DNA of 64,000 nucleotides from an uncultured bacterium (GCA_963843795.1 CAWJLW010000006.1:2490375-2554374), one strand, 5' to 3'. Positions 49,317 through 49,372 are shown, counted from the first letter of the stretch. The notes: a model not told the origin generated them from the sequence alone. Program-made: numbers and translations.

Positions 49317-49372
49317 GCCAACAACACAAAAGCGCCCTGCAAGTACTTGCAGGGCGCTTTTGTGTTGTTGGC
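49317..49372. repeat. Palindromic element in a 56-bp perfect palindrome at a convergent junction (DUF1559 / beta-helix)
   Basis: gccaacaacacaaaagcgccctgcaagtacttgcagggcgcttttgtgttgttggc. Confidence 0.9.

Follow-up and report, generated by a model that had tools for sequence, protein, structure and literature searches.

Long palindromes centred on an abundant 12-mer form terminator-like hairpins at gene 3′ ends in an uncultured bacterium related to Abditibacterium

A stretch of 64,000 nucleotides from an uncultured bacterium (GCA_963843795.1 CAWJLW010000006.1:2490375-2554374), here called the window, carries long palindromes between its genes, and the 12-bp palindrome GCAAGTACTTGC (the core) lies at the centre of several of them. 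The window has a G+C content of 53%, and the GlcD protein that it encodes (58553-60049, - strand) is 69-77% identical to GlcD of Abditibacterium and of metagenome-assembled genomes of Abditibacteriaceae. Four convergent gene pairs have such a palindrome between their stop codons: a prepilin-type gene and a beta-helix gene, a GH26/PilZ gene and glcD, an aldo-keto reductase gene and a patatin-like gene, and a pair near the start of the window (Table 1). These genes are mostly supported by Pfam or NCBIfam matches or by conserved homologues. Over the whole window, most genes that flank junctions, and many others, match a Pfam or NCBIfam family.

The sequence was inspected at the four sites, and palindromic symmetry was followed outward from each AGTACT of the window. 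An independent inverted-repeat search gave the same arms. All four palindromes described in the initial annotation exist, but three are longer than it stated, namely 34 bp for 1309-1342, 44 bp for 8912-8955 and 56 bp for 49317-49372; the remaining one, at 58506-58557, spans 52 bp with one mismatch, as claimed. The core had also been placed correctly, at the exact centre of each palindrome, with the symmetry point between AGT and ACT of GCAAGTACTTGC. A common layout is found at the four sites, in which an outer arm is followed by an A-tract of 4-5 nt, a GC-rich stem and the core, and then by the mirror image with a T-tract of 4-5 nt. The tracts are short, and they flank the stem base symmetrically in all four cases. 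The RNA of both strands was predicted to fold into single stable hairpins with a stem of about 11-13 bp and a GUAC loop, at -35 to -52 kcal/mol and z scores of -7.5 to -11.5.

Table 1. Palindromes of the window, with their symmetry, layout, gene context and predicted RNA folds.
Coordinates	Length and symmetry	Core or centre	Layout	Junction and neighbours	Folds of the two strands (kcal/mol)
49316-49373 (main site)	58 bp, perfect; arm 29 nt, no mismatch	core 49339-49350	outer arm AGCCAACAACAC, A4, GCGCCCT, core GCAAGTACTTGC, then mirror	prepilin-type gene stop 49298-49300 (+); beta-helix gene stop 49379-49381 (-)	-51.7 (+), -52.2 (-); z about -11
58506-58557	52 bp, one mismatch (C.A on + strand, G.U on - strand)	core 58526-58537	TGTGAATT, A5, GCGCCCT, core, mirror	right arm covers glcD stop (58553-55) and 2 nt of last glcD codon; left arm begins 2 nt past GH26/PilZ gene stop (58502-04)	-35.2, -39.2
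8910-8957	48 bp, perfect (52 bp with one mismatch, 8908-8959)	core 8928-8939	TAAGCACG, A4, CGCGCT, core, mirror	left arm holds aldo-keto reductase gene TAA stop (8910-12); patatin-like gene stop 8967-69 (-)	-39.1, -41.3
1306-1345	40 bp, perfect	core 1320-1331	GCC, A4, GCGCCTG, core, mirror	between convergent genes 15-1286 (+) and 1364-2200 (-)	-39.1, -44.0
37208-37231	24 bp, perfect	core-centred	T-tract (TTTT) on + side only	junction 37198-37252	
6496-6535	40 bp (95%)	adjacent cores GCAAGTAATTGC and GCAAGTACTTGC	flanks AGCGCGCT	junction 6480-6550	
42958-43023	66 bp, perfect; longest of the window	no core; centre GAATTC	A6/T6, 14-nt outer arms	junction 42962-43028; dapF stop 42959-61 in left arm; S1-domain gene stop 43029-31	-56.5, -60.6
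35817-35850	34 bp, perfect	no core; centre GCGCGC		co-directional	
3436-3467	32 bp, perfect	core-centred	A3/T3+ tracts	co-directional (-,-)	
16934-16965	32 bp, perfect	core-centred		co-directional (+,+); begins 6 nt past stop ending 16928	
19299-19332	34 bp, perfect	core-centred		co-directional (+,+); after cytidylate-kinase-like gene	
61704-61733	30 bp, one mismatch	core-centred		co-directional (-,-); stem compensated in the L164 orthologue	

Pairing does not end at the tracts. It stays perfect for 8-14 nt outside the T-tracts at 8910-8957, 49316-49373 and 58506-58557, and also at 42958-43023. Three genes (the aldo-keto reductase gene, glcD and dapF) have their stop codons within an arm, together with 1-2 coding bases. 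Since these are real stop codons, it must be the non-coding arm on the other side that was fitted to them. Complementarity drops from 100% in the arms to 24/110, the chance level, directly outside. Each outer arm is unique within the window, and to this extent the flanks differ completely, as had been claimed; the inner flanks, however, share a loose consensus (AAA-GCGCG-CT-core-AG-CGCGC-TTT, with the half-site ACTTGC-AG-CGCGC-TTTT). The core copies share little information (0.2-0.85 bit) 7-16 positions from the centre and essentially none beyond position 17.

Chance or an assembly artefact has a negligible probability as an explanation. Five shuffled windows contained no perfect palindrome whose arms reached 14 nt, against nine in the window itself, and the same architecture is present at loci of relatives that were assembled independently (L161 from JGI, L162-L164 from ENA and L165 from Logan). 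Nine such palindromes in 64 kb amount to 140 per Mb; other Abditibacteria have 42 per Mb (10 in 237 kb) and unrelated loci 7 per Mb (14 in 2.0 Mb). Perfect palindromes are thus about 20 times commoner per Mb in the window than in the sampled unrelated loci.

The core itself is present in 38 exact copies (about 0.6 per kb), and with up to one mismatch in 47 copies, where 0.17 are expected. The 10-mer CAAGTACTTG occurs 40 times against 0.02 expected. Of these 40 copies, 31 (78%) are intergenic, though about 88% of the window is coding. A core lies within 80 nt of 28 of the 54 gene 3′ ends, usually 10-25 nt past the stop codon. The initial annotation had tied the core to convergent junctions. Cores were found in six of nine convergent spacers, and likewise in 19 of 36 tandem (co-directional) and six of eight divergent ones, so the core is a general intergenic element and no mark of convergence. 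Tandem doublets of the core, abutting or 1 nt apart, lie at 6504-6527 and 15032-15056 in the window and at 1795-1815 in L165. Rfam gave no match at gathering thresholds, and a consensus promoter and terminator scan of the window returned 42 terminator-like matches against 35.6 expected and so did not discriminate.

Two side observations concern the core. The one-mismatch variant GCAGGTACTTGC occurs four times in the window, at 36735, 41044, 45960 and 60091, and the last of these copies is orthologous to an exact core in L164. Two tandem paralogous genes without a Pfam or NCBIfam match (28199-29458 and 29499-30767, - strand) each have a core 8 nt past the stop, with near-identical proximal flanks, which suggests that the core was duplicated together with the gene end.

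Nine convergent junctions are present in the ORF-based (open reading frame) map of the window. A core-centred palindrome of at least 24 bp was found at five of them (1287-1363, 8913-8966, 37198-37252, 49301-49378 and 58505-58552), with arms of 20, 24, 12 and 29 nt and, at the last, 26 nt with one mismatch. Another has a double core, and here the symmetry centre falls between the two abutting copies (6496-6535). The junction at 46102-46136 holds a half-core only, the one near 27000 has no core-centred hairpin, and the ninth is occupied by the core-less palindrome of 66 bp. The claim that core-centred palindromes lie wherever two genes converge was therefore too broad. It was also too narrow, as core-centred perfect palindromes of 32-34 bp stand at the co-directional junctions 3436-3467, 16934-16965 and 19299-19332. 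All seven core-centred perfect palindromes of the window with arms of at least 14 nt are located at gene 3′ ends. The core-less perfect palindromes at 42958-43023 and 35817-35850 show that long palindromes do not require the core.

It is arm length, and not the presence of the core, that varies with junction type. Perfect arms have a median of 16 nt at convergent junctions, 8.5 and 7.5 nt at co-directional junctions on the + and - strands, 7 nt in divergent spacers and 6 nt within genes. With one mismatch allowed, the corresponding medians are 23, 9.5, 9.5, 7 and 6 nt. For the one-mismatch arms, convergent cores differ from co-directional ones (Mann-Whitney, p=0.017) and from divergent and genic ones (p=0.003), and co-directional cores differ from divergent and genic ones (p=0.0003). 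Pairing between flanks was counted for core copies with 16 nt of flank per side, with shuffled or slid partners as controls. The 24 cores located at gene 3′ ends have 70.2% of their flank cells paired, compared with 61.8+-1.6 in shuffles (0/500 reach the observed value) and 33-40% with slid partners, and the covariation score is 0.279 vs 0.164. No pairing excess was found for the 15 divergent and intragenic cores (50.9 vs 52.2%). The extension thus belongs to gene 3′ ends and not to the core as such.

Relatives were used to follow individual arms. L164 is collinear with window positions 62371-55446 at 83% nucleotide identity, and its seven cores all stand at positions orthologous to window cores, one of them inside mutY. 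Stems have been compensated between the two: GCGCACTG/CAGCGCGC at window 61716 corresponds to GCGTTCTG/CAGAACGC at L164 649, and GCGCG/CGCGC at window 56787 to GTGTG/CACGC at L164 6275. L004 and L005 differ by a swap of G:C to C:G in a 34-bp palindrome that is otherwise identical. Neither L163 nor L164 (83-86% identical) has the outer arms TGTGAATT/AATTCACA or the symmetric A5/T5 found at 58506-58557, which indicates that this structure is young. L165 (83% identity) is the only close relative that covers the junction 49316-49373; it shares the gene-proximal arm apart from about six substitutions, and its contig ends in a double core.

The initial annotation had proposed that the palindromes were built or maintained locally. 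This proposal is supported by the unique outer arms, the lack of a consensus beyond position 17, the flank covariation, the drop of complementarity to chance directly outside the arms, the constrained stop codons within arms, the compensated orthologous stems and the turnover of arms. The alternative is that they are copies of a small mobile element spread through intergenic regions, comparable to repetitive extragenic palindromic (REP) sequences, their REP doublets forming hairpins (REPINs) or miniature inverted-repeat transposable elements (MITEs). The mostly extragenic location (31/40 cores), the high copy number and the loose common consensus to about 17 nt per side would suit such copies. 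Information is, however, weak beyond position 8 and about zero beyond 17, and the arms are perfectly paired yet site-specific, the opposite of decaying copies. Host stop codons lie within the arms, and no Y1 (RAYT) transposase is encoded among the genes of the window. Neither the terminal inverted repeats with target-site duplication and near-identical copies of MITEs nor the whole-element conservation of REPs and REPINs (about 20-40 nt) was found. The mobile-element explanation was rejected as largely refuted by the unique outer arms and by the lack of target-site duplications at the ends of the four palindromes, and we regard it as highly improbable.

The gap between glcD and the GH26 gene contains one core in the window, two in L164 around a Uma2 gene (0.66 kb) and two in L163 around 3.9 kb. 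Alignments from both sides overlap on the window core, and thus the insertion-deletion break-points lie in the core (window 58523-58535 vs 11588/15464 in L163 and 3838/4503 in L164). In L163, an IS701-like insertion sequence (IS) at 13951-15471, with a DDE_5 transposase at 14043-15356, sits at the exact centre of a core palindrome. It has 14-bp terminal repeats AATACCTTCGCCAA, with AAGTACTT on either side; this terminal repeat is absent from the 64-kb window.

These break-points and this insertion would fit a site that acts at the level of DNA. The core would be recognised by a dimeric protein, such as an uptake receptor, a methyltransferase or repair enzyme, a recombinase or a nucleoid protein, and the extension would arise from cruciform or hairpin DNA or from recombination. 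The same can be said of the density of the core, its dialects around an invariant AGTACT, the sister lineages free of GTAC (below), the tandem duplications of the core and the cores kept at orthologous positions at 83% nucleotide identity, including the one inside mutY. A site of this kind accounts for the core but leaves the extension unexplained; cores at gene 3′ ends have complementary flanks whereas divergent and intragenic ones do not, and equally long palindromes lack the core. We therefore consider it an unlikely explanation of the palindromes.

The GCAAGTACTTGC dialect recurs in L161, L162, L163, L164, L165, L166 and L167. L161 (67% G+C) has 17 copies in 21 kb, mostly intergenic by the JGI gene calls. 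Relatives with this dialect carry perfect core-centred palindromes of 40-42 bp at co-directional junctions, and the one at L161 5412-5453 has A/T tracts. Other dialects centred on AGTACT are present in three Abditibacteria, at loci of 21 kb around glcD. L008 has CAAAGTACTTTG, with 7/9 copies intragenic; L010 and L011 have TCGAGTACTCGA (26 AGTACT in 21 kb), with 20/25 copies intragenic in L011 and one terminator-like extension there (arm 17 nt). GTAC is wholly absent from six glcD loci of other Abditibacteriaceae (L002-L006 and L009, 11-21 kb each), where a Markov model predicts 8-20 copies and base composition 42-84, and CTAG occurs 0 or 1 times. L001 and L057 have 2-3 GTAC and one CTAG. The lineages that tolerate GTAC (the window, L008, L010, L011 and L161-L167) are those with hyper-abundant AGTACT-centred palindromes. 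The core-less relatives L004, L005 and L009 have ordinary A4-stem-T4 palindromes at gene ends. As a side observation, a perfect 36-bp palindrome in L004 (17091-17126) has its tracts in the opposite order to a terminator, T before A.

It may be that the 12-mer is a new genome-wide signal of Abditibacteriota, of the type of the cyanobacterial highly iterated palindrome HIP1 or of the DNA uptake sequence (DUS), although we hold this only tentatively and think it doubtful. As a self-complementary switch point for template switching and illegitimate recombination, the motif would write palindromic terminators around itself and mark the break-points at which cassettes are gained or lost and insertion sequences enter. 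As part of this possibility, the purging of GTAC from sister lineages would point to a methylation, restriction or repair system directed at GTAC or AGTACT. If this were true, the motif would shape genome architecture both mechanically and functionally. A literature search on AGTACT methyltransferases found nothing relevant, and among the papers searched none mentions the 12-mer or connects Abditibacterium to palindromes.

We favour, with a probability of about 0.6, the explanation that the palindromes are bidirectional hairpins of the intrinsic-terminator type, nucleated on a genome-wide, lineage-specific palindrome and with arms perfected locally, by compensation or by template switching. 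It builds on the observed anatomy, folding, dependence on junction class, covariation and turnover between relatives. Termination, which the initial annotation had proposed as well, agrees with the anatomy, the folding of both strands and the position, and we infer it from shape alone. Two layers would be superimposed, namely the lineage-specific AGTACT-centred 12-mer and the GC-rich gene-end hairpins with A- and T-tracts. A self-complementary 12-mer would fit into a hairpin unbroken only at the apex, as the top four base pairs and the GUAC loop, and this restriction would make core and terminator concentric in a convergent spacer of 50-80 nt. The core probably also seeds the hairpin.

The site-specific arms would be held Watson-Crick perfect by the need for both convergent transcripts to fold. 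A G.U pair on one strand is a C.A mismatch on the other, and perfect symmetry is therefore expected within the stems. A single template switch at the palindromic centre during replication could rewrite a whole flank so that it becomes the reverse complement of the opposite one. This step, which we infer, would explain why pairing runs 8-14 nt past the T-tracts, why the arms contain stop codons and end abruptly, and why the structure is young. Which palindromes persist would then depend on selection at gene 3′ ends, and the unextended state of divergent cores shows that such selection filters the outcome. A single template-switch event has been shown to make or mend a perfect stem (PMC8794818), compensation is a route by which terminator stems evolve (PMC5381666), and over-represented uptake motifs have been co-opted into terminator hairpins (PMC1852404).

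Several observations weigh against this explanation. The T-tracts are only 4-5 nt long, and canonical termination has no use for pairing past them. Frequent neutral template switching predicts extended cores in divergent spacers, and none was seen. Many short-armed cores in apparent operons occupy the space from a stop codon to the following ribosome-binding site and have no T-tract, and at 20144-20312 a canonical terminator (20179-20215) stands apart from a neighbouring short-armed core. Past the orthologous prepilin gene, L166 and L167 have two cores with a separate, core-less terminator between them; with this terminator and a different neighbour gene, neither locus holds a strict orthologue of the 49316-49373 palindrome. 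The perfect core-centred palindromes of 40-42 bp at L162 1334-1373 and centred at about 9998 in L163 have no T-tracts, so termination cannot explain everything. Finally, the gene map consists of our own ORF and codon-usage calls, with no curated annotation.

Some of these observations would suit hairpins that act mainly as stabilisers of RNA 3′ ends or as processing or attenuation elements, as REP sequences do in Escherichia coli, with long perfect stems that either shield the upstream mRNA from 3′ exonucleases or serve as the target of a double-strand-specific RNase. The 28 of 54 gene 3′ ends with a nearby core include positions within apparent operons and immediately before ribosome-binding sites that lack a T-tract, the relatives have long palindromes without T-tracts, and pairing past a T-tract would matter only in transcripts that read through it. 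REP sequences in 3′ untranslated regions (UTRs) have been shown to be dual terminator-stabilisers, and both roles, terminator and mRNA stabiliser, have been proposed for them (bioRxiv 10.64898/2026.03.23.713779). Yet at the four sites and at 42958-43023 the A/T tracts are symmetric and abut the stem base exactly, a hallmark of bidirectional terminators, and the core-less relatives use plain A4-stem-T4 hairpins in like positions. A mainly stabilising role is somewhat unlikely in our view; it and termination are not mutually exclusive.

The closest precedent for the favoured explanation is the co-option of uptake signal sequences (USS) and DUS into terminators. In Pasteurellaceae and Neisseria, as in the window, an abundant motif of 9-12 nt is built into gene-end hairpins (PMC1852404). 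The motif is present in hundreds to thousands of copies per genome, and about 55% of high-confidence Neisseria terminators contain an exact DUS (Kingsford et al. 2007, PMC1852404). DUS dialects are lineage-specific (PMC3630211). Long stems, comparatively weak T-tails and lineage dialects are common to both systems. In USS/DUS terminators, however, the stem consists of two inverted copies of a non-palindromic motif, whereas here apex and loop come from a single palindromic motif, and each stem is specific to its site. Unlike USS and DUS, the core also occupies divergent spacers and those between a stop codon and a ribosome-binding site. The sole pilin-like gene of the window encodes a prepilin-type protein of the DUF1559/H-X9-DG kind, which does not amount to evidence for competence.

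HIP1 resembles the core in being a hyper-abundant short palindrome with alternative palindromes by lineage and sites conserved between genomes (PMC4390886, PMC5861425). Both motifs have a centre of the restriction or methylation type, AGTACT/GTAC here and CGATCG/GATC in HIP1. HIP1 is 8 bp long, is found within and between ORFs and has not been reported as a terminator apex, whereas the core is 12 bp long and 78% intergenic; unlike the window, the L011 and L008 dialects are mostly intragenic.

REP sequences and bacterial interspersed mosaic elements (BIMEs) of enterobacteria are, like the palindromes here, extragenic and found in 3′UTRs between tandem and convergent genes. Some insertion sequences, such as IS1397, insert specifically into REPs, and the IS701-like element in the L163 core resembles such cases. 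REPs are imperfect and conserved over their whole length of about 35 nt, whereas in the window conservation is limited to the central 12-16 nt, with stems that are perfect and unique. Bidirectional intrinsic terminators are a general feature of bacteria at convergent genes, in the form of a symmetric GC-rich hairpin with an A-tract and a T-tract between the stop codons. Their handling has been described (PMC1852404). The palindromes of the window differ from ordinary ones in being perfect, without spacer and 40-66 bp long, and in reaching 8-14 nt past the tracts and into stop codons. Hairpins made by template switching are predicted to have perfect reverse-complement blocks, abrupt ends, multi-base compensation and stems formed in one event (PMC8794818). 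The process has been demonstrated in rRNA and other RNA genes by ancestral reconstruction (PMC8794818); for the present palindromes it is a proposal.

The link between motif and terminator in the transformable Neisseria and Pasteurellaceae would thereby extend to a barely studied phylum, with the new aspect that the over-represented motif is itself palindromic and placed at the hairpin apex. Perfect, site-specific arms that run past the tracts and into stop codons offer a natural system in which template switching can be set against stepwise compensation. The hairpins would also predict operon and transcript ends in Abditibacteria. The core, with its dialects, GTAC purge, break-points and IS insertion, merits follow-up more than the terminators do. 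These same features make the origin and function of such a repeat testable by comparative genomics and methylomes; for HIP1, both are still unresolved after 30 years.

Further observations concern other genes and the composition of the window. The mutS gene (38250-40968, -) has a 1-nt frameshift near 38,900, where the frame shifts after ...SAKIGL, as expected of either a real pseudogene or an assembly error; its true C-terminus is encoded up to 38250, with the core at 38234 about 11 nt further on. A predicted beta-class N6A/N4C DNA methyltransferase of 256 aa (26991-27761, -; PF01555) has M.RsrI, M.MboIIA and CcrM as its closest solved relatives, and no recognisable restriction enzyme adjoins it. 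The statistics of palindromic 4- and 6-mers in the window did not reveal its target. Over the whole window, CCGCGG occurs twice against 25 expected, GATC reaches 0.43 of its Markov expectation, and CACGTG, GAGCTC and AGATCT are absent.

The beta-helix gene beside the main site (49379-51142, -) contains no core. Proteins of Bacteroidota (Spirosoma, Larkinella, Persicitalea and Segetibacter) share 75-82% identity with its product. A metagenome scan with this protein gave 80 loci, none of which has the core, and showed 70-80% identity between unrelated phyla. The products of the neighbouring genes are far less conserved from phylum to phylum, which makes the beta-helix protein a candidate for horizontal transfer.

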